DNA of 64,000 nucleotides from Escherichia coli (GTDB lineage Bacteria; Pseudomonadota; Gammaproteobacteria; Enterobacterales; Enterobacteriaceae), in NCBI RefSeq assembly GCF_003790525.1, contig NZ_CP033635.1; one strand, given 5' to 3'. The position numbers were made by a program, and so were the translations under genes. The notes under the pieces were generated by a model. The model was not told the DNA's origin and did not search any database. It was given only the letters and a program-made list of their open reading frames with translations. The number at the start of each line of letters is the position of its first letter. Positions within the stretch are counted from its first letter, which is position 1. Positions 14,018 through 61,487 of this stretch are shown here, piece by piece.

Positions 14018-14782
14018 ATGGAAAATATAATGAACAATCCGGTTATCGGTGTCGTAATGTGCAGGAACAGGCTTAAGGGTCATGCGACCCAGACTCTGCA
14101 AGAAAAGTACCTGAATGCCATCATCCACGCAGGCGGTTTGCCAATAGCGCTACCACATGCGCTGGCGGAACCGTCGTTACTTGAACAACTTTTGCCGAAA
14201 CTCGATGGTATTTATCTTCCTGGTAGTCCCAGCAATGTGCAGCCGCACCTATATGGTGAAAACGGCGATGAGCCTGACGCCGATCCCGGGCGTGATCTTC
14301 TGAGCATGGCGTTAATTAATGCCGCACTCGAAAGGCGCATCCCCATTTTCGCCATCTGCCGGGGTTTACAGGAACTGGTGGTGGCAACCGGTGGTTCGTT
14401 GCATCGCAAGCTGTGCGAACAGCCTGAATTGCTGGAACATCGGGAAGATCCCGAACTGCCGGTGGAGCAGCAATATGCACCGTCGCATGAAGTTCAGGTT
14501 GAAGAGGGGGGATTGCTGTCTGCGTTGTTACCTGAATGTAGCAACTTTTGGGTAAACTCTCTGCATGGACAAGGGGCGAAGGTCGTTAGCCCACGGTTGC
14601 GTGTTGAAGCTCGCTCGCCGGATGGCTTAGTTGAGGCGGTTAGCGTCATCAATCATCCTTTTGCGCTGGGCGTACAGTGGCACCCGGAGTGGAACAGTAG
14701 CGAGTACGCGCTTTCGCGTATATTGTTCGAGGGCTTTATCACCGCTTGTCAGCACCATATCGCTGAAAAACAGCGACTCTGA
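14018..14782 (+). CDS. puuD: Gamma-glutamyl-GABA hydrolase PuuD
   Basis: Class-I glutamine amidotransferase-like ORF; start set at MENIMNNPV (254 aa). Confidence 0.88.
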   Translation: MENIMNNPVIGVVMCRNRLKGHATQTLQEKYLNAIIHAGGLPIALPHALAEPSLLEQLLPKLDGIYLPGSPSNVQPHLYGENGDEPDADPGRDLLSMALINAALERRIPIFAICRGLQELVVATGGSLHRKLCEQPELLEHREDPELPVEQQYAPSHEVQVEEGGLLSALLPECSNFWVNSLHGQGAKVVSPRLRVEARSPDGLVEAVSVINHPFALGVQWHPEWNSSEYALSRILFEGFITACQHHIAEKQRL

Positions 14783-23000: not shown

Positions 23001-24680
23001 ATGAAACAGAAAATTACGGATTACCTGGACGAAATCTACGGTGGAACATTTACCGCAACTCATTTACAGAAACTTGTAACGCGTCTTGAGAGTGCGAAAC
23101 GATTAATTACACTGCGACGTAAAAAACACTGGGATGAAAGTGATGTCGTGTTAATCACCTATGCCGATCAATTTCACAGTAATGATTTAAAACCACTACC
23201 CACATTTAATCAGTTTTACCCTCAATGGCTGCAAAGCATTTTTTCACATGTTCATTTATTACCTTTTTATCCATGGTCATCTGATGATGGCTTTTCGGTA
23301 ATTGATTATCAACAGGTCGCTAGTGAAGCGGGGGAGTGGCAGGATATTCAGCAACTCGGTGAATGCAGTCATTTAATGTTTGATTTTGTCTGCAACCATA
23401 TGTCGGCAAAAAGTGAATGGTTTAAAAACTATTTACAACAGCAGCCAGGTTTTGAAGATTTTTTTATTGCCGTTGACCCGCAAACCGATCTCAGCGTCGT
23501 CACTCGCCCGCGTGCGTTACCGTTATTAACGCCATTCCAGATGCGCGATCATTCAACGCGCCATTTATGGACCACCTTTAGTGACGATCAAATTGACCTG
23601 AATTACCGTAGCCCTGAAGTGTTACTGGCGATGGTGGATGTATTGCTGTGCTACCTGGAAAAGGGCGCAGAATATGTCCGTCTGGATGCCGTTGGCTTTA
23701 TGTGGAAAGAGCCGGGAACAAGCTGCATCCATCTGGAAAAAACACATCTGATTATCAAACTGTTACGGTCGATTATTGATGACGTAGCACCAGGTACAGT
23801 GATCATTACCGAGACCAATGTTCCGCACAGAGACAACATTGCTTACTTTGGCAACGGTGATGACGAAGCGCATATGGTGTACCAGTTCTCGCTGCCGCCG
23901 CTGGTGCTGCATGCGGTGCAAAAACAGAACGTTGAGGCGCTTTGTGCGTGGGCGCAAAACCTGACACTACCTTCCAGCAACACCACCTGGTTTAACTTCC
24001 TCGCCTCTCACGATGGCATCGGGCTTAACCCACTGCGTGGCTTGCTACCCGAAAGCGAAATATTAGCGCTGGTCGAGGCATTACAGCAGGAAGGGGCATT
24101 AGTTAACTGGAAAAATAATCCCGACGGTACGCGTAGCCCGTATGAAATGAATGTCACTTATATGGATGCGTTAAACCGCCGCGAGAGTAGCGATGAAGAA
24201 CGTTGCGCCAGGTTTATCCTTGCCCATGCGATTTTGTTAAGTTTCCCCGGTGTGCCAGCGATATATATTCAAAGTATTCTGGGCTCGCGTAATGATTACG
24301 CAGGTGTCGAAAAACTGGGATATAACCGTGCGATTAACCGTAAAAAATATTACAGTAAAGAGATCACGACCGAACTGAACAATAAAACGACGTTAAGGCA
24401 CGCGGTATATCATGAATTGTCGCGACTAATTAAAATTCGTCGAAGTCATAACGAGTTTCATCCAGATAATGATTTTACCATCGACACGGTTAATTCATCC
24501 GTAATGTGTATTCAAAGAAGCAACGCGGATGGTAATTGTCTGACAGGATTGTTTAATGTCAGTGAAAATATTCAGCATATAAATATTACTGACCTGCACG
24601 GTCGGGATCTGATTAGTGAAGTTGATATAGTGGGTAATGAAATAACGCTGCGCCCCTGGCAGGTTATGTGGATTAAATAA
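23001..24680 (+). CDS. ycjM: Glucosylglycerate phosphorylase YcjM (GH13_18)
   Basis: GH13-like ORF; start set at MKQKITDYL (559 aa). Confidence 0.88.
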   Translation: MKQKITDYLDEIYGGTFTATHLQKLVTRLESAKRLITLRRKKHWDESDVVLITYADQFHSNDLKPLPTFNQFYPQWLQSIFSHVHLLPFYPWSSDDGFSVIDYQQVASEAGEWQDIQQLGECSHLMFDFVCNHMSAKSEWFKNYLQQQPGFEDFFIAVDPQTDLSVVTRPRALPLLTPFQMRDHSTRHLWTTFSDDQIDLNYRSPEVLLAMVDVLLCYLEKGAEYVRLDAVGFMWKEPGTSCIHLEKTHLIIKLLRSIIDDVAPGTVIITETNVPHRDNIAYFGNGDDEAHMVYQFSLPPLVLHAVQKQNVEALCAWAQNLTLPSSNTTWFNFLASHDGIGLNPLRGLLPESEILALVEALQQEGALVNWKNNPDGTRSPYEMNVTYMDALNRRESSDEERCARFILAHAILLSFPGVPAIYIQSILGSRNDYAGVEKLGYNRAINRKKYYSKEITTELNNKTTLRHAVYHELSRLIKIRRSHNEFHPDNDFTIDTVNSSVMCIQRSNADGNCLTGLFNVSENIQHINITDLHGRDLISEVDIVGNEITLRPWQVMWIK

Positions 24681-24693
24681 AAAGGAACATCTC

Positions 24694-25986
24694 ATGATTA
24701 AATCAAAAATCGTGCTGTTATCAGCACTGGTTTCCTGCGCCCTGATTTCAGGTTGTAAAGAAGAAAATAAAACGAATGTCTCCATTGAGTTTATGCATTC
24801 TTCGGTGGAACAGGAACGCCAGGCGGTAATTAGTCAGTTAATTGCGCGTTTTGAAAAAGAAAACCCGGGCATCACCGTTAAACAAGTGCCCGTGGAAGAA
24901 GACGCCTATAACACCAAAGTCATTACCCTTTCACGTAGTGGTTCGCTGCCGGAAGTGATCGAAACCAGCCATGACTACGCCAAAGTTATGGACAAAGAGC
25001 AGCTTATCGATCGCCTGGCGGTTGCCACGGTCATCAGCAACGTCGGTGAAGGCGCGTTCTACGATGGCGTTCTGCGGATTGTGCGCACCGAAGATGGTAG
25101 CGCATGGACCGGTGTTCCTGTCAGCGCCTGGATTGGCGGCATCTGGTATCGCAAAGATGTGCTGGCAAAAGCCGGGCTGGAGGAGCCGAAAAACTGGCAG
25201 CAATTGCTGGATGTCGCGCAGAAACTGAATGACCCGGCGAATAAAAAATATGGCATTGCGCTGCCTACGGCAGAAAGTGTGCTGACGGAACAATCCTTCT
25301 CCCAGTTTGCCTTATCCAACCAGGCCAACGTCTTTAACGCCGAAGGCAAAATCACCCTTGATACACCAGAGATGATGCAGGCGCTGACCTATTACCGCGA
25401 CCTTGCTGCCAACACCATGCCGGGTTCTAACGACATCATGGAGGTGAAAGACGCTTTTATGAACGGCACCGCGCCGATGGCGATTTACTCCACCTATATC
25501 CTTCCGGCTGTGATTAAAGAGGGCGATCCGAAAAACGTTGGTTTCGTTGTACCCACCGAGAAAAACTCTGCGGTCTACGGCATGTTGACCTCGCTGACCA
25601 TTACCGCCGGGCAAAAGACCGAAGAGACCGAAGCGGCTGAAAAATTTGTCACCTTTATGGAGCAGGCAGACAACATTGCCGACTGGGTGATGATGTCGCC
25701 AGGCGCGGCGCTGCCGGTGAACAAAGCGGTTGTCACTACCGCCACCTGGAAAGACAACGACGTTATTAAGGCGCTGGGAGAATTGCCAAATCAGTTAATC
25801 AGCGAACTGCCAAATATTCAGGTCTTTGGCGCAGTAGGGGATAAAAATTTTACCCGCATGGGCGATGTGACGGGTTCTGGCGTGGTGAGCTCCATGGTGC
25901 ATAACGTCACCGTGGGTAAAGCCGACCTCTCTACCACGCTGCAAACGAGCCAGAAAAAGCTGGATGAACTGATCGAACAGCACTAA
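24694..25986 (+). CDS. ycjN: ABC sugar-binding periplasmic lipoprotein YcjN
   Basis: 430-aa ORF with lipoprotein signal (LISGC); family-1 solute-binding protein. Confidence 0.88.
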   Translation: MIKSKIVLLSALVSCALISGCKEENKTNVSIEFMHSSVEQERQAVISQLIARFEKENPGITVKQVPVEEDAYNTKVITLSRSGSLPEVIETSHDYAKVMDKEQLIDRLAVATVISNVGEGAFYDGVLRIVRTEDGSAWTGVPVSAWIGGIWYRKDVLAKAGLEEPKNWQQLLDVAQKLNDPANKKYGIALPTAESVLTEQSFSQFALSNQANVFNAEGKITLDTPEMMQALTYYRDLAANTMPGSNDIMEVKDAFMNGTAPMAIYSTYILPAVIKEGDPKNVGFVVPTEKNSAVYGMLTSLTITAGQKTEETEAAEKFVTFMEQADNIADWVMMSPGAALPVNKAVVTTATWKDNDVIKALGELPNQLISELPNIQVFGAVGDKNFTRMGDVTGSGVVSSMVHNVTVGKADLSTTLQTSQKKLDELIEQH

Positions 25987-26006: not shown

Positions 26007-26888
26007 ATGAACAGGCTTTTTTCAGGTCGTTCCGATATGCCCTTTGCGCTGCTGCTTCTCGCGCCCTGCTTATTACTGCTGGGCGGTCTGGTGGCGTGGC
26101 CAATGGTGTCGAATATCGAAATCAGTTTTTTACGTCTGCCGCTTAATCCCAACATCGAGTCAACGTTTGTTGGGGTGAGCAACTATGTGCGTATTCTCTC
26201 CGATCCCGGCTTCTGGCACTCGCTGTGGATGACGGTCTGGTATACCGCGCTGGTGGTGGCAGGTAGCACCGTGCTCGGGCTGGCAGTGGCGATGTTTTTC
26301 AACCGCGAGTTCCGCCTGCGTAAAACCGCGCGTTCGCTGGTGATCCTCTCCTACGTAACGCCGTCTATTTCGCTGGTGTTCGCCTGGAAATACATGTTCA
26401 ACAACGGCTACGGCATTGTGAACTACCTCGGCGTCGATCTTCTGCATCTCTATGAGCAGGCACCGCTGTGGTTCGATAATCCGGGCAGTAGCTTTGTGCT
26501 GGTGGTGCTGTTCGCCATCTGGCGCTACTTCCCGTATGCCTTTATCTCGTTTCTGGCGATTTTGCAGACCATTGATAAATCGTTGTACGAAGCGGCAGAG
26601 ATGGACGGCGCGAATGCCTGGCAACGGTTTCGCATCGTCACGCTGCCCGCGATTATGCCGGTCCTGGCGACGGTGGTGACGCTGCGCACCATCTGGATGT
26701 TCTACATGTTTGCTGATGTTTATCTGCTGACGACCAAGGTCGATATTCTCGGCGTCTATCTCTACAAAACCGCCTTTGCCTTTAATGACTTAGGGAAAGC
26801 GGCGGCGATCTCGGTGGTGCTCTTCATCATTATTTTCGCTGTCATTCTGCTGACCAGAAAACGGGTGAACCTCAATGGCAACAAATAA
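26007..26888 (+). CDS. ycjO: ABC sugar permease YcjO
   Basis: 293-aa MalF-type permease ORF. Confidence 0.88.
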   Translation: MNRLFSGRSDMPFALLLLAPCLLLLGGLVAWPMVSNIEISFLRLPLNPNIESTFVGVSNYVRILSDPGFWHSLWMTVWYTALVVAGSTVLGLAVAMFFNREFRLRKTARSLVILSYVTPSISLVFAWKYMFNNGYGIVNYLGVDLLHLYEQAPLWFDNPGSSFVLVVLFAIWRYFPYAFISFLAILQTIDKSLYEAAEMDGANAWQRFRIVTLPAIMPVLATVVTLRTIWMFYMFADVYLLTTKVDILGVYLYKTAFAFNDLGKAAAISVVLFIIIFAVILLTRKRVNLNGNK

Positions 26889-27717
26889 ACGCACACTCAG
26901 TCGCATCGGTTTTTACTGCGGGCTGGCGCTGTTTCTCATCATCACGCTGTTTCCGTTTTTTGTGATGCTGATGACCTCGTTCAAAAGCGCGAAAGAGGCG
27001 ATCTCGCTGCATCCTACGCTGCTGCCACAGCAGTGGACGCTGGAGCATTACGTCGACATTTTTAACCCGGTGATTTTCCCGTTTGTCGATTATTTCCGTA
27101 ACAGCATGGTGGTGTCGGTAGTTTCATCCGTGATAGCAGTATTTCTCGGCATTCTCGGGGCTTACGCGCTTTCCCGCCTGCGCTTTAAAGGGCGGATGAC
27201 CATCAACGCCAGCTTTTACACGGTGTACATGTTCTCCGGCATTTTGCTGGTGGTGCCGCTGTTCAAAATCATCACCGCGCTTGGCATATACGACACCGAG
27301 ATGGCGCTGATCATCACCATGGTAACGCAAACCCTGCCCACCGCCGTGTTTATGCTGAAAAGCTACTTCGACACCATCCCTGATGAGATTGAAGAAGCGG
27401 CGATGATGGATGGCCTCAACCGGCTGCAAATCATCTTCCGCATTACCGTGCCGCTGGCAATGTCCGGGCTGATCTCCGTGTTCGTCTACTGCTTTATGGT
27501 GGCGTGGAACGACTATCTGTTTGCGTCGATTTTCCTCTCCAGCGCCAGCAATTTCACCTTACCAGTGGGCCTGAACGCGCTGTTCAGTACGCCTGATTAC
27601 ATCTGGGGACGCATGATGGCGGCCTCGCTGGTGACCGCATTGCCGGTGGTGATTATGTATGCGCTTTCGGAACGTTTTATTAAGAGTGGTTTGACCGCCG
27701 GTGGCGTGAAGGGCTAA
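26875..27717 (+). CDS. ycjP: ABC sugar permease YcjP
   Basis: 280-aa MalG-type permease ORF, overlaps ycjO end. Confidence 0.88.
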   Translation: MATNKRTLSRIGFYCGLALFLIITLFPFFVMLMTSFKSAKEAISLHPTLLPQQWTLEHYVDIFNPVIFPFVDYFRNSMVVSVVSSVIAVFLGILGAYALSRLRFKGRMTINASFYTVYMFSGILLVVPLFKIITALGIYDTEMALIITMVTQTLPTAVFMLKSYFDTIPDEIEEAAMMDGLNRLQIIFRITVPLAMSGLISVFVYCFMVAWNDYLFASIFLSSASNFTLPVGLNALFSTPDYIWGRMMAASLVTALPVVIMYALSERFIKSGLTAGGVKG

Positions 27718-27747: not shown

Positions 27748-28800
27748 ATGAAAAAGTTAGTAGCCACAGCACCGCGCGTTGCTGCGCTGGTTGAGTATGA
27801 AGATCGGGCGATTTTAGCCAATGAAGTGAAGATCCGCGTGCGTTTCGGCGCACCGAAACACGGAACGGAAGTGGTCGACTTCCGCGCCGCCAGCCCGTTT
27901 ATCGATGAAGACTTTAACGGCGAGTGGCAGATGTTCACCCCGCGTCCCGCAGATGCGCCGCGCGGCATTGAGTTTGGCAAATTCCAGCTTGGCAACATGG
28001 TGGTTGGCGACATTATCGAGTGCGGCAGCGACGTTACCGACTACGCGGTGGGCGACAGCGTATGCGGCTACGGCCCGCTCTCCGAGACGGTCATCATTAA
28101 CGCAGTGAATAACTACAAGCTGCGCAAAATGCCGCAAGGCAGCTCCTGGAAAAACGCCGTCTGTTACGACCCGGCGCAGTTTGCCATGAGCGGCGTGCGC
28201 GATGCCAACGTACGCGTAGGGGATTTTGTCGTGGTGGTAGGGCTTGGCGCGATCGGTCAAATTGCCATCCAACTGGCGAAACGCGCTGGCGCATCGGTGG
28301 TAATTGGCGTCGATCCTATCGCCCATCGCTGTGAGATTGCCCGTCGCCACGGTGCTGATTTCTGCCTTAACCCCATTGGCACTGACGTAGGCAAAGAGAT
28401 CAAAACGCTGACCGGCAAGCAGGGTGCCGATGTGATTATCGAAACCAGCGGTTACGCCGACGCGCTGCAATCGGCGCTGCGCGGTCTGTCCTACGGCGGC
28501 ACCATCTCGTATGTCGCGTTTGCCAAACCATTTGCTGAAGGTTTTAACCTCGGACGCGAAGCGCATTTCAATAACGCCAAAATTGTTTTCTCCCGCGCGT
28601 GCAGCGAACCGAACCCGGATTATCCGCGCTGGAGCCGTAAGCGTATTGAAGAAACCTGCTGGGAACTGCTGATGAACGGTTATCTCAATTGCGAAGATTT
28701 AATCGACCCGGTAGTGACCTTTGCCAACAGCCCGGAAAGCTACATGCAGTATGTCGATCAGCATCCGGAACAGAGCATCAAAATGGGCGTTACGTTTTAA
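27748..28800 (+). CDS. ycjQ: Zn-dependent sugar dehydrogenase YcjQ
   Basis: 350-aa MDR-family ORF with Rossmann GLGAIG motif. Confidence 0.88.
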   Translation: MKKLVATAPRVAALVEYEDRAILANEVKIRVRFGAPKHGTEVVDFRAASPFIDEDFNGEWQMFTPRPADAPRGIEFGKFQLGNMVVGDIIECGSDVTDYAVGDSVCGYGPLSETVIINAVNNYKLRKMPQGSSWKNAVCYDPAQFAMSGVRDANVRVGDFVVVVGLGAIGQIAIQLAKRAGASVVIGVDPIAHRCEIARRHGADFCLNPIGTDVGKEIKTLTGKQGADVIIETSGYADALQSALRGLSYGGTISYVAFAKPFAEGFNLGREAHFNNAKIVFSRACSEPNPDYPRWSRKRIEETCWELLMNGYLNCEDLIDPVVTFANSPESYMQYVDQHPEQSIKMGVTF

Positions 28801-28817: not shown

Positions 28818-29606
28818 ATGAAAATAGGCACACAGAATCAGGCATTCTTTCCGGAAAATATTCTGGAGAAATTTCGTTATATCAAAGAGATGGGCTTCGA
28901 TGGTTTTGAGATTGACGGCAAACTGCTGGTCAACAACATCGAAGAAGTCAAAGCGGCAATCAAAGAAACCGGTTTACCGGTGACCACCGCCTGCGGTGGC
29001 TATGACGGTTGGATTGGCGACTTTATCGAAGAGCGTCGACTTAATGGCTTAAAGCAGATCGAACGCATTCTTGAAGCTCTGGCAGAAGTGGGCGGTAAAG
29101 GTATCGTCGTTCCGGCTGCATGGGGCATGTTTACCTTCCGCTTACCGCCGATGACCTCGCCGCGTAGCCTGGATGGCGACCGCAAAATGGTGAGTGATTC
29201 CCTGCGCGTACTGGAACAGGCGGCCGCACGTACCGGAACCGTGGTGTACCTCGAACCGTTAAACCGCTATCAGGATCACATGATCAACACCCTCGCCGAT
29301 GCTCGTCGTTACATCGTCGAAAACGATCTTAAACATGTACAGATTATCGGCGATTTCTATCACATGAATATCGAAGAAGATAACCTGGCGCAGGCGCTGC
29401 ATGACAACCGCGACCTGCTCGGTCATGTGCATATTGCCGATAACCATCGCTACCAGCCGGGCAGCGGCACCCTGGATTTCCACGCGCTGTTTGAACAGCT
29501 GCGCGCGGATAACTATCAGGGCTATGTGGTGTACGAAGGGCGTATCCGGGCAGAAGATCCTGCCCAGGCGTACCGTGATTCTTTGGCCTGGTTGCGTACC
29601 TGCTAA
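28818..29606 (+). CDS. ycjR: Sugar epimerase YcjR (xylose-isomerase-like TIM barrel)
   Basis: Start set at MKIGTQNQAFF (262 aa); the longer upstream frame overlaps ycjQ. Confidence 0.85.
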   Translation: MKIGTQNQAFFPENILEKFRYIKEMGFDGFEIDGKLLVNNIEEVKAAIKETGLPVTTACGGYDGWIGDFIEERRLNGLKQIERILEALAEVGGKGIVVPAAWGMFTFRLPPMTSPRSLDGDRKMVSDSLRVLEQAAARTGTVVYLEPLNRYQDHMINTLADARRYIVENDLKHVQIIGDFYHMNIEEDNLAQALHDNRDLLGHVHIADNHRYQPGSGTLDFHALFEQLRADNYQGYVVYEGRIRAEDPAQAYRDSLAWLRTC

Positions 29607-29615
29607 GAGGTCTTT

Positions 29616-30671
29616 GTGAAAAGTGCAATGACAAGCTCTCCGCTGCGGGTCGCGATCATAGGCGCGGGCCAGGTGGCGGATAAAGTTCATGCTTCGTACT
29701 ACTGCACCCGCAACGATCTGGAACTGGTGGCTGTCTGTGACAGCCGCCTTTCCCAGGCGCAGGCGCTGGCAGAAAAATACGGGAATGCATCCGTGTGGGA
29801 CGATCCGCAGGCCATGCTGCTGGCGGTGAAACCTGATGTGGTTAGCGTCTGCTCACCTAACCGTTTTCATTACGAACATACCCTGATGGCGCTGGAAGCG
29901 GGCTGCCATGTGATGTGCGAAAAACCGCCCGCCATGACGCCAGAACAGGCGCGGGAAATGTGCGATACCGCGCGCAAACAGGGCAAGGTGCTGGCCTACG
30001 ACTTTCACCATCGTTTTGCACTCGATACGCAACAGCTGCGTGAACAGGTGACCAACGGCGTTTTGGGAGAGATTTACGTTACCACCGCCCGCGCCCTGCG
30101 TCGCTGCGGCGTTCCCGGCTGGGGCGTTTTTACCAATAAAGAATTGCAGGGCGGCGGGCCGCTTATTGACATCGGCATTCATATGCTGGATGCGGCGATG
30201 TATGTACTGGGCTTTCCGGCGGTGAAAAGCGTGACCGCGCATAGCTTTCAAAAGATCGGCACACAAAAGAGCTGCGGTCAATTTGGCGAGTGGGACCCGG
30301 CAACCTACAGCGTCGAAGATTCGCTGTTTGGCACCATTGAATTTCATAACGGCGGCATTCTGTGGCTTGAGACCTCATTTGCACTCAACATCCGCGAACA
30401 GTCGATTATGAATGTCAGCTTTTGTGGTGATAAAGCCGGGGCGACGCTGTTTCCAGCACATATCTACACCGATAACAACGGTGAGTTAATGACGCTGATG
30501 CAACGGGAAATGGCAGACGACAACCGTCATCTGCGCAGTATGGAAGCCTTTATCAACCACGTACAAGGTAAGCCCGTGATGATAGCCGACGCCGAGCAGG
30601 GGTACATCATCCAGCAACTGGTGGCGGCGTTGTATCAATCCGCAGAAACAGGGACGCGTGTGGAATTATGA
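29616..30671 (+). CDS. ycjS: NAD-dependent oxidoreductase YcjS (Gfo/Idh/MocA)
   Basis: 351-aa ORF from GTG with AAGAGG 5 nt upstream (alternative ATG at 29628); Rossmann VAIIGAGQ. Confidence 0.85.
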   Translation: MKSAMTSSPLRVAIIGAGQVADKVHASYYCTRNDLELVAVCDSRLSQAQALAEKYGNASVWDDPQAMLLAVKPDVVSVCSPNRFHYEHTLMALEAGCHVMCEKPPAMTPEQAREMCDTARKQGKVLAYDFHHRFALDTQQLREQVTNGVLGEIYVTTARALRRCGVPGWGVFTNKELQGGGPLIDIGIHMLDAAMYVLGFPAVKSVTAHSFQKIGTQKSCGQFGEWDPATYSVEDSLFGTIEFHNGGILWLETSFALNIREQSIMNVSFCGDKAGATLFPAHIYTDNNGELMTLMQREMADDNRHLRSMEAFINHVQGKPVMIADAEQGYIIQQLVAALYQSAETGTRVEL

Positions 30672-32935
30672 CCAGGCCAGTAACGTTAACGGAACCCCAT
30701 TTCAGCCAGCATACCCTGAACAAGTATGCTTCGCTGATGGCGCAGGGGAACGGCTATCTTGGGCTTCGCGCCAGCCATGAAGAAGATTATACGCGCCAGA
30801 CACGCGGTATGTATCTGGCGGGGCTTTATCATCGCGCGGGGAAAAATGACATCAACGAACTGGTGAACCTGCCTGACGTCATAGGGATGGAGATTACCTT
30901 GAATGGTGAACTTTTTGCGCTATCCCGCGAAACGTGGCAGCGCGAGCTTGACTTCGCCAGTGGAGAATTACGTCGCAATGTCGTCTGGTCTTCAGCCAGC
31001 GGCGCACGTTATGCCATCGCCAGCCGTCGCTTTGTTTCGGCAGAACAACTGCCGCTGATGGCGCTGGAAATCAGCATTACGCCGCTGGACGCTGACGCGT
31101 CAGTGCTGATTTCAACAGGCATTGACGCCACGCAAACCAACCACGGACGACAACATCTCGACGAAACCCAGGTGCGGGTGTTTGGTCAGCATTTGATGCA
31201 GGGGATCTATACCACTCAGGATGGACGCAGTGATGTGGCCATCAGCTGTTGCTGCCAGGTGAGCGGTGACGTGCAGCAATGCTATACCGCCAAAGAGCGC
31301 CGCTTGCTGCAACATACCAGTGCACAACTACCTGCGGGCAAAACGCTGACGCTGCAAAAACGGGTGTGGATCGACTGGCGGGACGACAGACACGTCGCTT
31401 TAGACGAGTGGGGTAGTGCATCGCTTCGTCAGCTTGAAATGTGTGTACAGCAGAGTTACGACCAACTTCTTGCAGCATCCACAGAAAACTGGCGTCAATG
31501 GTGGCAGAAACGTCGTATCACGGTAAACGGTGGCGATGCGCACGATCAGCAAGCGTTAGATTATGCGCTTTATCACCTACGCATCATGACGCCTGCTCAC
31601 GACGAGCGCAGCAGTATTGCGGCAAAAGGTTTGACCGGGGAAGGCTACAAAGGCCACGTTTTCTGGGATACGGAAGTATTTTTACTGCCGTTCCATCTGT
31701 TTAGCGAACCGACGATTGCCAGAAGTTTACTGCGTTATCGCTGGCACAACTTGCCAGGCGCGCAGGAGAAAGCGCGACGCAACGGCTGGCAGGGCGCGCT
31801 ATTTCCGTGGGAAAGCGCGCGCAGCGGCGAAGAAGAGACGCCGGAATTTGCCGCCATTAACATTCGCACCGGGCTGCGGCAAAAAGTGGCCTCGGCGCAG
31901 GCGGAACATCATCTGGTCGCCGATATCGCCTGGGCGGTTGTTCAATACTGGCAGACCACGGGGGATGAAAGTTTCATTGCTCATGAAGGCATGGCGCTAC
32001 TTCTGGAAACTGCAAAGTTCTGGATTAGCCGCACGGTGAGGGTTAACGACCGTCTGGAAATTCATGATGTTATTGGGCCAGACGAATATACCGAACATGT
32101 CAATAATAACGCCTTCACCAGCTATATGGCGTATTACAACGTCCAGCAGGCGCTGAACATCGCTCGTCAATTTGGCTGTAGCGACGATGCGTTTATCCAT
32201 CGCGCCGAAATGTTCCTTAAAGAACTGCGGCTGCCAGAAATTCAGCCCGACGGCGTTTTGCCGCAGGATGATTCGTTTATGGCGAAACCAGCGATTAATC
32301 TGGCGAAATACAAAGCGGCGGCGGGGAAGCAAACCATTCTGCTGGATTATTCACGCGCAGAAGTGAACGAGATGCAGATCCTCAAACAAGCTGATGTGGT
32401 GATGCTCAATTACATGCTGCCGGAGCAGTACTCAGCGGCATCGTGTCTTGCCAATCTGCAATTTTATGAACCGCGCACCATTCACGACTCTTCACTGAGT
32501 AAAGCGATCCACGGCATTGTTGCCGCACGCTGTGGCCTGTTGGCGCAAAGTTATCAGTTCTGGCGGGAGGGGACTGAAATCGATCTTGGTGCTGATCCGC
32601 ATAGCTGTGATGACGGTATCCACGCTGCCGCAACTGGCGCAATCTGGTTGGGGGCGATTCAGGGTTTTGCCGGGGCGAGCGTGCGCAACGGTGAATTACA
32701 TCTCAATCCGGCGTTACCTGAGCAGTGGCAACAGTTGTCTTTCCCTCTGTTCTGGCAGGGCTGTGAATTACAGGTCACTCTTGACGCGCAGCGCATTGCG
32801 ATTCGGACTTCTGCGCCAGTTTCACTGCGTTTGAACGGTCAGCTTATTTCAGTCTCTGAAGAATCTGTTTTCTGTTTAGGGGATTTTATTTTGCCCTTCA
32901 ATGGGACCGCTACCACGCATCAGGAGGGTGAATGA
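30668..32935 (+). CDS. ycjT: Kojibiose phosphorylase YcjT (GH65)
   Basis: 755-aa GH65-like ORF; overlaps ycjS stop and ycjU start. Confidence 0.88.
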
Positions 32936-33591
32936 AACTGCAAGGGGTAATTTTCGATCTGGATGGAGTAATCACCGATACCGCACATCTGCATTTCCAG
33001 GCGTGGCAGCAGATTGCCGTTGAAATTGGCATCAGCATTGATGCGCAGTTTAACGAATTCCTAAAAGGGATCAGCCGCGATGAGTCCCTGCGGCGAATTC
33101 TGCAGCACGGGGGTAAAGAGGGCGATTTTAACCCACAGGAACGGGCGCAACTGGCGTATCGCAAAAATCTGCTTTACGTCCACTCACTGCGCGAACTGAC
33201 GGTTAATGCTGTGCTGCCTGGCATTCACAATTTGCTGGTAGAGCTCCGAGCACAGCAGATTCCGGTTGGGCTGGCTTCTGTCTCCCTGAATGCGCCGACG
33301 ATTTTAGCAGCGCTGGAGCTGCGCGAGTTTTTCACCTTCTGCGCGGACGCTTCCCAACTCAAAAATTCGAAACCGGACCCGGAAATCTTTCTCGCCGCCT
33401 GTGCAGGGCTGGGCGTGCCGCCACAGGCATGTATCGGCATTGAAGATGCGCAGGCGGGCATTGAAGCCATTAACGCCAGCGGTATGCGCTCGGTGGGGAT
33501 CGGCGCGGGCTTAACCGGGGCGCAATTGCTGTTGCCCTCAACGGAATCTCTCACATGGCCGCGGTTATCGGCCTTCTGGCAAAACGTATAG
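32932..33591 (+). CDS. ycjU: Beta-phosphoglucomutase YcjU (HAD)
   Basis: 219-aa ORF with HAD motif I ([10 protein letters not shown]). Confidence 0.9.
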
Positions 33592-33604
33592 CAAAGGAAT
33601 CAAC

Positions 33605-34687
33605 ATGGCTCAGCTTTCGTTACAACATATTCAAAAAATCTACGATAACCAGGTGCATGTGGTGAAGGACTTCAACCTGGAAATTGCCGATAAAGAGTTC
33701 ATTGTCTTTGTCGGTCCGTCAGGCTGCGGTAAATCGACTACGCTGCGCATGATTGCCGGGCTTGAGGAGATCAGCGGTGGCGATCTGTTGATCGACGGCA
33801 AACGAATGAATGACGTTCCAGCCAAAGCGCGCAATATCGCGATGGTGTTCCAGAACTACGCGCTGTATCCGCATATGACGGTCTACGACAACATGGCGTT
33901 TGGCCTGAAGATGCAAAAAATCGCCAAAGAGGTGATTGATGAGCGGGTTAACTGGGCGGCGCAAATCCTCGGCCTGCGTGAGTACCTGAAACGCAAGCCG
34001 GGCGCGCTTTCTGGCGGGCAACGCCAGCGTGTGGCGCTCGGACGGGCGATTGTGCGCGAAGCGGGCGTGTTTTTAATGGATGAACCGCTCTCTAACCTTG
34101 ATGCCAAGCTGCGCGTACAAATGCGCGCAGAGATCAGCAAGCTGCATCAGAAACTGAACACCACCATGATCTACGTGACCCACGATCAGACCGAAGCGAT
34201 GACCATGGCGACGCGGATTGTGATTATGAAGGATGGGATTGTTCAGCAGGTCGGTGCGCCGAAAACGGTTTATAACCAACCTGCGAATATGTTTGTTGCC
34301 GGATTTATTGGATCGCCTGCGATGAATTTTATTCGCGGCACGATCGATGGCGATAAATTCGTTACGGAAACGCTTAAATTAACCATACCCGAAGAGAAAT
34401 TAGCGGTTCTGAAAACACAGGAAAGTTTGCATAAGCCCATCGTGATGGGAATACGCCCGGAAGATATTCATCCGGACGCGCAAGAGGAAAATAACATTTC
34501 CGCCAAAATTAGCGTGGCAGAATTAACCGGTGCGGAATTTATGCTCTACACCACGGTTGGGGGGCACGAGTTAGTGGTCCGTGCTGGTGCGTTAAATGAT
34601 TATCATGCAGGAGAAAATATCACTATTCATTTTGATATGACTAAATGTCATTTCTTTGATGCAGAAACGGAAATAGCAATTCGCTAA
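33605..34687 (+). CDS. ycjV: ABC ATP-binding protein YcjV (MalK-like), intact
   Basis: 360-aa uninterrupted ORF, Walker A GPSGCGKST, signature LSGGQRQRV, MalK-type C-terminal domain. Confidence 0.85.
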   Translation: MAQLSLQHIQKIYDNQVHVVKDFNLEIADKEFIVFVGPSGCGKSTTLRMIAGLEEISGGDLLIDGKRMNDVPAKARNIAMVFQNYALYPHMTVYDNMAFGLKMQKIAKEVIDERVNWAAQILGLREYLKRKPGALSGGQRQRVALGRAIVREAGVFLMDEPLSNLDAKLRVQMRAEISKLHQKLNTTMIYVTHDQTEAMTMATRIVIMKDGIVQQVGAPKTVYNQPANMFVAGFIGSPAMNFIRGTIDGDKFVTETLKLTIPEEKLAVLKTQESLHKPIVMGIRPEDIHPDAQEENNISAKISVAELTGAEFMLYTTVGGHELVVRAGALNDYHAGENITIHFDMTKCHFFDAETEIAIR

Positions 34688-34731
34688 ATACAGGGGGAAG
34701 GCATTCCCCCAGGATAATACAAGGAACAATA

Positions 34732-35637
34732 ATGAAAAAGTTATTACCCTGTACCGCACTGGTGATGTGTGCGGGAATGGCTTGCGCACAGGCCGAGGAA
34801 AAGAACGACTGGCACTTTAATATCGGCGCGATGTACGAAATAGAAAACGTCGAAGGTTATGGCGAAGATATGGATGGGCTCGCGGAGCCTTCTGTCTATT
34901 TTAATGCCGCCAACGGGCCGTGGAGAATTTCTCTGGCCTATTATCAGGAAGGGCCGGTAGATTATAGCGCGGGTAAACGTGGAACGTGGTTTGATCGCCC
35001 GGAGCTGGAGGTACATTATCAGTTCCTCGAAAGCGATGATTTCAGTTTCGGTCTGACTGGTGGTTTCCGTAATTATGGTTATCACTACGTTGATGAACCG
35101 GGTAAAGACACGGCGAATATGCAGCGTTGGAAAATCGCGCCAGACTGGGATGTGAAACTGACTGACGATTTACGTTTCAACGGTTGGTTATCGATGTATA
35201 AATTTGCCAACGATCTGAACACGACCGGTTACGCTGATACCCGAGTCGAAACGGAAACAGGTCTGCAATATACCTTCAACGAAACGGTTGCTTTGCGAGT
35301 GAACTATTATCTCGAGCGCGGCTTCAATATGGACGACAGCCGCAATAACGGTGAGTTTTCCACGCAAGAAATTCGTGCCTATTTGCCGCTGACGCTCGGC
35401 AACCACTCGGTGACGCCGTATACGCGCATTGGGCTGGATCGCTGGAGTAACTGGGACTGGCTGGATGATATTGAACGTGAAGGCCATGATTTTAACCGTG
35501 TGGGGTTATTTTACGGTTATGATTTCCAGAATGGTCTTTCCGTTTCGCTGGAATACGCGTTTGAGTGGCAGGATCACGACGAAGGCGACAGCGATAAATT
35601 CCATTATGCAGGTGTCGGCGTAAATTACTCGTTCTGA
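34732..35637 (+). CDS. ompG: Outer-membrane porin OmpG
   Basis: 301-aa ORF with signal peptide, beta-barrel pattern, C-terminal aromatic (…NYSF). Confidence 0.9.
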   Translation: MKKLLPCTALVMCAGMACAQAEEKNDWHFNIGAMYEIENVEGYGEDMDGLAEPSVYFNAANGPWRISLAYYQEGPVDYSAGKRGTWFDRPELEVHYQFLESDDFSFGLTGGFRNYGYHYVDEPGKDTANMQRWKIAPDWDVKLTDDLRFNGWLSMYKFANDLNTTGYADTRVETETGLQYTFNETVALRVNYYLERGFNMDDSRNNGEFSTQEIRAYLPLTLGNHSVTPYTRIGLDRWSNWDWLDDIEREGHDFNRVGLFYGYDFQNGLSVSLEYAFEWQDHDEGDSDKFHYAGVGVNYSF

Positions 35638-35651
35638 TAATGGGTTAAATT

Positions 35652-35681
35652 GCCGGATGCGGCGCGAGCGCCAAATCCGGC
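35652..35681. repeat. REP-like palindrome / terminator after ompG
   Basis: GCCGGATGCGGCGCGAGCGCCAAATCCGGC between convergent ompG and ycjW. Confidence 0.6.
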
Positions 35682-35687
35682 ATACAT

Positions 35688-36686
35688 TTATTTCAACGAC
35701 ATATGCGTGGCAACGGTAATATTTTGTGGTGACGGTTTTCCGGCAATTAAGCGGAATAATAACTCGCAGCTTTGTTGCCCTAACTCCTGCGTCGGAACAT
35801 CGATGCCGCCCGGTGCAGGCGTTAAAATAAATGACAGCGTTTCATTGCTATAACCCACCACCGCTAACTGCTGCGGAATAGCAATATTTTTCTCTGCTGC
35901 CGCACGATAAATGCTCATTAATTTCAGGCTGTCAGTGGCAAATACGGCTTCTGGCAACGGCGACTGGCTTAATAATTGCCGTGCGGCTTGCAAGGCTGTT
36001 TCATGGGTATAACCGCCGTCAACAATCCATTCATCACGCACTGCAATATTATGCGTAGCCAGGCTTTGCTTATAACCATTTACCCGATCCACTGAAACAT
36101 GAACATCAAGCGGCGCATGCAGGCAGGCAATATTCTTATGCCCGCTTTCAATTAACGCATTGGTCAGCGCAATACTGTCGCCATAATTATCGGTATCGAC
36201 GGAATAAACATGGCTGTATTGACCTTCAACTTTGCCAATTACCACTACCGGAATATCATATTTATCGAGTTGGGCAAAAAATGACTCATCCGCTGGCGAA
36301 CTTAGCATAATAATGCCTTTAATCATTTTCTGCTTAATTTTGCTTTCGCATTTTTGTAAGTCTTCTGCCAGGTTGTGCGACGTCTGCAATATCACGTCGA
36401 AACCTTCTTCTTCAGCTTTGGCGGTGATGGCATGTAAAACTTCCGAGAAAAACGGATTACCCGCCGTAGTTTTGGTCGAACGGGTAGAAATCACCATAAT
36501 GGCATCAAAACCCGAAGAGGTCAGCGCGCGTGCCAGCTTGTTTGGTTGATACTGTAATTCTTCAATGGCCCGTAACACTTTTTCGCGCGCTTCCGGGGAG
36601 ATATTGGTTTGCTTATTCAGCACGCGTGATACGGTGGATTTTGATACGCCTGCAACCCTGGCAATATCATAAATAGTTGGGGACAT
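35688..36686 (-). CDS. ycjW: LacI-family transcriptional repressor YcjW
   Basis: 332-aa ORF with N-terminal LacI HTH ([21 protein letters not shown]). Confidence 0.9.
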
Positions 36687-43431: not shown

Positions 43432-43557
43432 TATTTTCATTGATGTGCAGATATTAGAATTGTCGTAATGTTATATACATGGCGTATTTTATTCTTACTG
43501 GTTCTACACATGTTAATCGCATCTGATTGATCAGTTCACCTTAATAAGTTTAATAAA

Positions 43558-43582
43558 TCGTACTGCACATAGTACAGTACGA
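43558..43582 (-). terminator. Hairpin 3' of ymjC-like gene (probable operon terminator)
   Basis: 8-bp arms TCGTACTG/CAGTACGA with 9-nt loop, about 20 bp after the stop, followed on the minus strand by an A/U-rich tract. Confidence 0.4.
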
Positions 43583-43601
43583 TGGTAGCTATATAATTGA
43601 T

Positions 43602-44240
43602 TTACATGAAGAAGGGCTTATCACCATCAGTCCCGGGTTGATTGATGCCTATATTCTCACCAATGTGTTTCTCAGGTTTATCGATGATATCTGTGATTAA
43701 TGCTGCGACACTCTTACGTGATACGATCGTACCTTTGAATGGTTCATTGCGTGAGGTAAGCTCATAATCAATAATATCTTCATCAGTCAGCCAGGCAGGG
43801 CGAAGAATTGTATATTCCAGTCCAGAAGCCTCAATTGCATCCGCAGCCCTGCGGAATGGTTTTAGGGGTTCACCAATAACTGCATTATTCCATTCGCCAA
43901 ATTTTCCTGGAACTTCATCATAAATACCGAGGGAAAGAACAAAGATCAGACGTTTAACATCACAGGCTTTCATCGCAGCGATCACTGAATTTGCCTGAAT
44001 ATCTAAATCTTCCCCCGTAAGGTTGGCATACACAACATCCTGTCCCTGCATGGCCTGCTTCAGTGCTGCATGATTCAGTACATCCCCCATAATAATCTTG
44101 CTATTAGTTGGATAGGGTTTGTGGATTTTTGCTGGCTGACGGGCAAATAAAGTTTGTTTAATGGTTTGTTTATCTGCCAGTTGATTAATCACATGGCGGG
44201 CTATCTGACCGCCAGCACCAAGAATCAGTATATTTTTCAT
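43602..44240 (-). CDS. NAD(P)-binding NmrA/SDR-like protein (ymjC-like), intact
   Basis: 212-aa ORF with Rossmann motif ILGAGGQIA. Confidence 0.75.
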   Translation of the reverse strand: MKNILILGAGGQIARHVINQLADKQTIKQTLFARQPAKIHKPYPTNSKIIMGDVLNHAALKQAMQGQDVVYANLTGEDLDIQANSVIAAMKACDVKRLIFVLSLGIYDEVPGKFGEWNNAVIGEPLKPFRRAADAIEASGLEYTILRPAWLTDEDIIDYELTSRNEPFKGTIVSRKSVAALITDIIDKPEKHIGENIGINQPGTDGDKPFFM

Positions 44241-57828: not shown

Positions 57829-57836
57829 AACTGCAT

Positions 57837-57931
57837 AAAAAAAATAGAGTCTGTCGACATCCGCCAGACTCTACAGTACACACAGCAGTGCATCCGCGTC
57901 TTAAATCCGGCATGGTCTCCTCTGCGCCGGT
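57837..57931 (-). ncRNA. mcaS: Small RNA McaS (IsrA)
   Basis: Minus-strand sequence matches McaS as I recall it (5' ACCGGCGCAGAGGAGAC...); terminal hairpin AGAGTCTGGCGGATGTCGACAGACTCT plus U8; sits between abgR and smrA. Confidence 0.8.
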
Positions 57932-61272: not shown

Positions 61273-61309
61273 ATAAACTCTCTACCCATTCAGGGCAATA
61301 TCTCCCTTG

Positions 61310-61419
61310 CAGGTGAATGCAACGTCAAGCGATGGGCGTTGCGCTCCATATTGTCTTACTTCCTTTTTTGAATTACTGCATAGCACAATTGATTCGTACG
61401 ACGCCGACTTTGATGAGTC
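61310..61419 (+). ncRNA. fnrS: Small RNA FnrS
   Basis: Matches FnrS as I recall it (GCAGGUGAAUGCAACGUCAAGCGAUGGGCG...); terminal hairpin GCCGACTTTGATGAGTCGGC plus U8; between zntB and dbpA. Confidence 0.85.
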
Positions 61420-61487
61420 GGCTTTTTTTTGCCTGTTATATATCAGCGTCTACCCTTTAAGAGTCCACCCAATGACCGGAGGGAAAT

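Follow-up and report, generated by a model that had tools for sequence, protein, structure and literature searches.

In the K-12 lineage of Escherichia coli (among others MG1655, W3110 and BW25113/Keio), ycjV, the ATPase gene of the only ABC importer in the ycj cluster, is truncated. The 64,000-nt stretch of E. coli DNA analysed here, hereafter the window, contains a copy of this gene that a first-pass annotation described as a continuous MalK-like frame of 360 aa. The same annotation took the K-12 allele to be disrupted, suggested that this strain may possess a complete ycjNOPV transporter for the glucosylglycerate/kojibiose pathway, and proposed the strain as a better background for studying it. 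Is this frame a genuine gene, is it really broken in K-12, and which of the two states is the exception within the species? If the gene is intact, what would the transporter be expected to do with it?

The ycjV frame of the window is open from its ATG start over 360 codons and retains all its domains, as the annotation had it. An AAGGA ribosome-binding site (RBS) lies 6 nt 5' of the ATG, itself 13 nt past the pgmB stop (Table 1). Pfam profiles place in the predicted protein an ABC_tran catalytic domain (110.5 bits, E 1e-31, curated cut-off 25), followed by a MalK-type regulatory domain made of OB_MalK (54.9 bits, E 2e-14, curated cut-off 27) and TOBE_2 (39.8 bits, E 5e-10, cut-off 21), the latter covered from position 2 to position 76 of a 76-position profile. 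The set of catalytic motifs is complete, with Walker A (GPSGCGKS), the Q-loop (VFQ), LSGGQ, Walker B including its catalytic Glu (VFLMDE) and the H-loop (THD) starting at residues 37, 81, 135, 155 and 192, respectively. When YcjV was searched against the PDB, Bacillus subtilis MsmX (6YIR) ranked first, followed by 7X0Q (an entry titled 'ABC transporter related protein'), AlgS, an archaeal MalK and E. coli MalK. The alignment with MsmX runs from end to end (YcjV 1-360 on MsmX 1-365, E 1e-148, about 64% identity), both proteins sharing a two-domain architecture that includes the C-terminal tail, whereas E. coli MalK (1Q12, 2R6G), of the same family and fold by sequence, aligns with YcjV residues 1-353 (E 5e-100), belongs only to the class of about 45% identity, and has other permease partners. 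The regulatory contacts of MalK with EIIAGlc and MalT are a MalK feature, without known counterpart in YcjV. MsmX, for its part, is an orphan multitask ATPase serving several oligosaccharide importers, whereas ycjV is encoded inside one transporter cluster. Because the frame combines an RBS, Pfam domains, catalytic motifs and an end-to-end structure alignment, it is a real gene, and a chance open reading frame is excluded. With its ABC_tran domain, motifs, regulatory domain, and co-encoded permeases and binding protein, YcjV has the features of a MalK/MsmX-type (CUT1) ABC importer ATPase, and both its position between pgmB (ycjU) and ompG and its high identity to K-12 ycjV identify the gene as the orthologue of ycjV within the ycj cluster of E. 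coli.

This cluster is complete in the window, with twelve genes. Using K-12 proteins as tblastn queries, ycjMNOPQRST, pgmB, ompG and ycjW were all recovered at full length, gap-free and collinear with K-12. The complete ycjNOPV gene set put forward for this strain is indeed present, all four genes being full length and collinear with K-12, and YcjN, YcjO and YcjP share 98.6-99.7% identity with the K-12 proteins. The genes for the phosphorylases YcjT and YcjM and for the phosphoglucomutase PgmB (93.9%, 95.2% and 95.9% amino-acid identity, respectively) are noticeably more diverged from K-12 than ycjQRS and the genes of the transporter (98.6-99.7%), perhaps as a result of recombination, or because these alleles form a class whose specificity is altered. 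For the window ycjT allele, the PGAP product name is only 'glycoside hydrolase family 65 protein', and kojibiose phosphorylase is not given.

Table 1. Features of the ycj cluster and of ycjV in the window (nucleotide positions of the window).
Feature	Position	Strand	Evidence
ycjM	23001-24680	+	ORF, tblastn, SMS-3-5 annotation
ycjN, lipoprotein substrate-binding protein	24694-25986	+	tblastn, ORF, SMS-3-5 annotation
ycjO, permease	26007-26888	+	tblastn, ORF, SMS-3-5 annotation
ycjP, permease	26875-27717	+	tblastn, ORF, SMS-3-5 annotation
ycjQ	27748-28800	+	ORF, tblastn, SMS-3-5 annotation
ycjR	28818-29606	+	ORF, tblastn, SMS-3-5 annotation
ycjS	29616-30671	+	ORF, tblastn, SMS-3-5 annotation
ycjT	30668-32935	+	ORF, tblastn, SMS-3-5 annotation
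pgmB/ycjU	32932-33591	+	ORF, tblastn, SMS-3-5 annotation
pgmB stop codon TAG	33589-33591	+	read from sequence
ycjV RBS AAGGA	33594-33598	+	read from sequence
ycjV, ATG start, 360 codons	33605-34687	+	uninterrupted ORF (ORF listing)
ABC_tran catalytic domain, YcjV aa 21-162	33665-34090	+	Pfam and motif positions
MalK-type C-terminal regulatory domain: OB_MalK aa 236-288, TOBE_2 aa 282-351	34310-34657	+	Pfam
G6 homopolymer run, G5 in K-12 (gene nt 955-960)	34559-34564	+	pairwise alignment, run-length count
Codons 321-360, lost in K-12	34565-34684	+	translated tails, 6YIR alignment
ompG, outer-membrane porin, directly downstream of ycjV	34732-35637	+	ORF, tblastn, SMS-3-5 annotation
ycjW, LacI-type repressor of the cluster	35688-36686	-	ORF, tblastn, SMS-3-5 annotation

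In the gap that separates the stop codon of ycjV from the RBS of ompG, a GC-rich hairpin with a 7-bp stem (34693-34710; GGGGGAA-GGCA-TTCCCCC; -13.6 kcal/mol, z -2.2) is terminator-like on the minus strand and has no U tract on the plus strand. A terminator or promoter splitting ycjV from ompG was considered and rejected, given this U-tract-less plus-strand hairpin and promoter-like hits occurring at chance level; the hairpin and promoter scan of the ycjV-ompG gap gave no sign of a separate ompG transcription unit. Further downstream, the spacer between ompG and ycjW (35668-35686) is about 60 nt shorter than in K-12, where positions 14063-14141 of the locus are unmatched, and a small repeat element has probably been inserted into the K-12 spacer.

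What, then, distinguishes the K-12 allele? The homologous coding sequence of K-12 (ycjV/ymjB, b1318/b4524 in MG1655) occupies the same ycjU (pgmB)-ompG locus, is 1082 nt long and is flagged 'frameshifted' by PGAP; pairwise alignment with the window gene gives 96.6% nucleotide identity, with 36 substitutions and one gap. This gap, the sole length difference, is one G absent from the K-12 GGGGGG run, beyond which the K-12 frame reads ...TTVGG-TS-stop and ends at 322 aa, the last 40 residues being replaced by Thr-Ser-stop, whereas the window frame continues uninterrupted over its 360 codons. The old C-terminus lies in K-12 in a second ORF of 37 codons, and NC_000913.3 lists the pieces as the pseudogenes ycjV (b1318) and ymjB (b4524), the ymjB fragment (the last 114 nt) being annotated separately. 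This pseudogene state (five G, stop after 322) is found in K-12, in NC_000913.3 and in the isolate OkiPb01703, discussed below, and is absent from the window, with its six G and open frame. The annotation was right about a disrupted K-12 allele, and the alignment suggested as a check finds one G missing in K-12, not the same open frame. The defect itself is already known, being part of the standard reference annotation, and MG1655 ycjV is also labelled 'pseudogene' in a mutation table (PMC4786092).

At the protein level, the 40 missing residues belong to the TOBE part and amount to roughly one third of the regulatory domain. TOBE_2 scores 20.6 bits in the K-12 product, below the Pfam cut-off, with only profile positions 2-40 covered, and the ABC_tran and OB_MalK scores are undiminished. 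The lost tail aligns with MsmX through its final residue (18 of 40 identical, counted by eye), and its FDM.K.HFFD.ETE..IR motif is common to B. subtilis MsmX. In MalK, the regulatory domain holds the ATPase dimer together; we infer, reasonably in our opinion, that the K-12 product would be unstable or inactive. Since K-12 ycjV with one G added is exactly the allele of C41(DE3), a strain of the BL21 lineage, the lesion is, on this allele comparison, a recent and derived one-base deletion in a homopolymer, without further decay.

To what extent does either state represent the species? The frame was surveyed in 5426 complete E. coli genomes, using as probes an 86-nt segment centred on the G run (six G) and the matching K-12 85-mer (five G). 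A whole-gene ycjV match was obtained in 5001 of the 5426 genomes, nearly full length in 4980, and about 8% of complete E. coli genomes had no ycjV match at all. In an evenly spaced sample of the ranking, 35 of 39 full-length matches were 1083 nt long, three were 1082 nt (all K-12) and one was 1084 nt; a 1083-nt ycjV was found in a Nissle derivative and in the BL21 derivative C41(DE3). The exact 86-mer occurs in 4375 of the 4995 genomes having the site (88%), including O157:H7, O111:H8 and SMS-3-5, a census that concerns the frame-determining segment only. The exact K-12 85-mer is present in 369 genomes, and the five of them that were sampled resemble K-12 laboratory strains or have a K-12-sized genome (ER1709, MG1655, TG1, an evolution clone and a genome of 4.64 Mb); in O104:H4 and strain 83972, the match to the K-12 85-mer spans 86 nt, i.e., there is no deletion. 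By this count, an intact ycjV is the species norm, in some nine out of ten E. coli carrying the gene, and disruption characterizes the K-12 lineage and rare other strains.

The idea that the five-G run is exclusive to K-12 had nevertheless to be rejected, as the bovine isolate OkiPb01703 (5.3 Mb, locus 587-1668) has it too, its allele differing from that of K-12 by four substitutions. A hotspot shared with other ycjV frameshifts was likewise rejected: FDAARGOS_1256, whose ycjV is 1084 nt long, has its six G intact, and its lesion is one additional A within a run of six A around nt 311 (locus nt ~1811), with a stop at codon 112. Either of these two lesions may be a real mutation or a homopolymer assembly error and, if real, the OkiPb01703 state may represent a recurrence or shared ancestry with K-12. 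One genome keeps only the last 231 nt of ycjV.

The window itself is closely related to SMS-3-5, from which it differs at 4 of the 50,000 positions between 8501 and 58500 (99.992% identity), and the segment 21001-46000 is 100% identical to SMS-3-5 and to about a dozen other genomes. Its ycjV is 100% identical to the WP_000057972.1 genes of FDAARGOS_497 and SMS-3-5, annotated in the SMS-3-5 RefSeq record as an ABC transporter ATP-binding protein, and the exact YcjV protein of the window is already on public record. C41(DE3) carries the entire cluster, with an intact ycjV encoding WP_000057985.1, a 360-aa protein in the same operon context and identical to the window protein at 359 of 360 residues. 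The two alleles differ by 36 nucleotides, 35 of these differences being synonymous and one non-synonymous (A232S, with Ala in the window and Ser in the B lineage); the K-12 protein is identical to the window protein over residues 1-320, again except for A232S. Having one amino-acid change among 36 nucleotide differences indicates strong purifying selection on ycjV in natural E. coli, along its whole length. Judging from these alignments, the window ycjV is the ancestral wild-type state and K-12 the derived mutant.

The proposal that the strain would make a better background fares less well: an intact ycjV is found in most E. coli and the whole cluster in C41(DE3)/BL21. The same complete gene set is available in almost every E. 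coli outside K-12, BL21 included, which leaves the proposal weak. Neither is the lineage a better genetic background, as it is SMS-3-5-like, and SMS-3-5 is a multidrug-resistant environmental isolate. As a discovery, the finding is therefore a minor one, namely the usual allele of a gene already described beside a well-annotated K-12 pseudogene.

What would this intact allele bring to the cell? The window ycjV is almost certainly an ordinary wild-type gene for a MalK/MsmX-type ATPase expected to drive YcjO/YcjP and YcjN, K-12 being a derived deletion. A YcjV homodimer would energise the YcjO/YcjP permease pair, which the lipoprotein YcjN would feed; OmpG would be the putative route across the outer membrane, and YcjW would act as repressor. 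The intact allele would in this way give a working importer, whose substrate would be some alpha-glucoside related to the cluster enzymes. Purified B-strain YcjV (WP_000057985.1), one residue away from the window protein, has ATPase activity (PMC7658222). YcjW has been characterized as a repressor that kojibiose releases from DNA in vitro (PMC6599011), and, according to a secondary source (PMC8009128), signature-tagged mutagenesis screens of EHEC in calves put ycjV on the list of colonisation factors.

Could the difference between the two frames be technical? It lies in a homopolymer, where errors of long-read sequencing usually occur, and the lone frameshifts of single assemblies (seven A in FDAARGOS_1256, five G in OkiPb01703) could be such errors; a miscalled sixth G in this assembly, or a sequencing error behind the five G of K-12, would leave no real difference to explain. 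Six G are, however, read in 4375 independent genomes, and five in 369 independent K-12-type assemblies that include the curated reference; moreover, only the six-G frame aligns with MsmX to the last residue, and the chance of an artefact is vanishingly small. The same can be said of the idea that the intact ycjV is a rare, strain-specific restoration, leaving this strain unusually well equipped for the pathway, to which we give next to no credence. Of the 5002 matching records, only 113 reach 99% identity or more with the window allele over the whole gene, but it is synonymous drift in the SMS-3-5 lineage that makes this allele rare, and not the state of the frame, the frame-determining segment being identical in 88% of the genomes having the site, and the BL21 lineage being intact as well.

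A further question is whether intactness makes much difference to transport. The K-12 product keeps the complete ATPase core and two thirds of the regulatory domain, and MalK and UgpC of E. coli can partly replace each other, so that a truncated YcjV might still work, or MalK/UgpC might energise YcjOP, and K-12 would not be transporter-deficient. Sugar importers that share an ATPase are also documented in Firmicutes (PMC7658222). This possibility is nonetheless unlikely in our estimation, as the lost tail is conserved from E. coli to B. subtilis and strong purifying selection extends along the whole gene; the inability of both E. coli YcjV and MalK to substitute for MsmX in B. subtilis shows that interchange is not general (PMC7658222), and the failure of MG1655 on kojibiose even without YcjW, as cited in PMC6599011, fits a broken importer. 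A working importer could also have a substrate other than kojibiose or glucosylglycerate, such as a D-guloside/3-keto-glucoside precursor or a plant-derived glycoside, in which case an intact ycjV alone would not enable the growth assays that had been proposed on these two compounds. We take this to be quite possible, if short of an even chance. No binding was detected for YcjN, with thermal shifts below 0.5 °C in the presence of kojibiose and all other tested sugars, and its authors call its ligand unknown (PMC11543891), while Luhachack et al. considered that kojibiose is perhaps not the natural inducer (PMC6599011). On the other hand, a negative thermal shift is no proof of non-binding (PMC11543891), and an alpha-glucoside is the simplest guess, given that the transporter genes are transcribed together with those for the kojibiose and glucosylglycerate phosphorylases and that kojibiose frees YcjW from DNA in vitro (PMC6599011). 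That YcjNOPV takes up kojibiose or glucosylglycerate is an assumption.

With the window allele taken as wild type and K-12 as its derived deletion, results obtained in K-12 deserve a second look. According to the YcjW report (PMC6599011), kojibiose as the only carbon source did not support growth of MG1655, whether or not ycjW was present, and this failure was seen in a strain with a broken ycjV. Does the frameshift explain it, along with the obscure role of the ycj genes? If so, strains with an intact or repaired gene would take up kojibiose, glucosylglycerate or a related glucoside and grow on it in a ycjV-dependent manner, an explanation that we find plausible and yet rather doubtful. In two recent YcjN papers, YcjV is given as the transporter ATPase and the word 'pseudogene' is absent, and the K-12 frameshift may be an overlooked confounder. 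Because ycjV is truncated in K-12, negative growth or uptake results from K-12 strains should not be ascribed to E. coli in general, and the obvious control for work on the ycj pathway would be a strain of the BL21 lineage, or a K-12 strain in which the G is put back.

Elsewhere in the window, a second gene is intact where K-12 has a pseudogene. It encodes an SDR family oxidoreductase of 212 aa (WP_000789793.1 in SMS-3-5; ORF 43602-44240, minus strand) and lies between mpaA and ycjY. K-12 and C41(DE3) lack about 660 nt at this site (window 43441-44102) and keep a remnant of 138 nt annotated 'NAD-dependent dehydratase, incomplete', and FDAARGOS_497 lacks the SDR gene together with ycjY and pgrR. 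The small RNA genes FnrS (61309-61426, plus strand) and McaS (57836-57931, minus strand), both recognized at the Rfam gathering score, are ordinary E. coli features.
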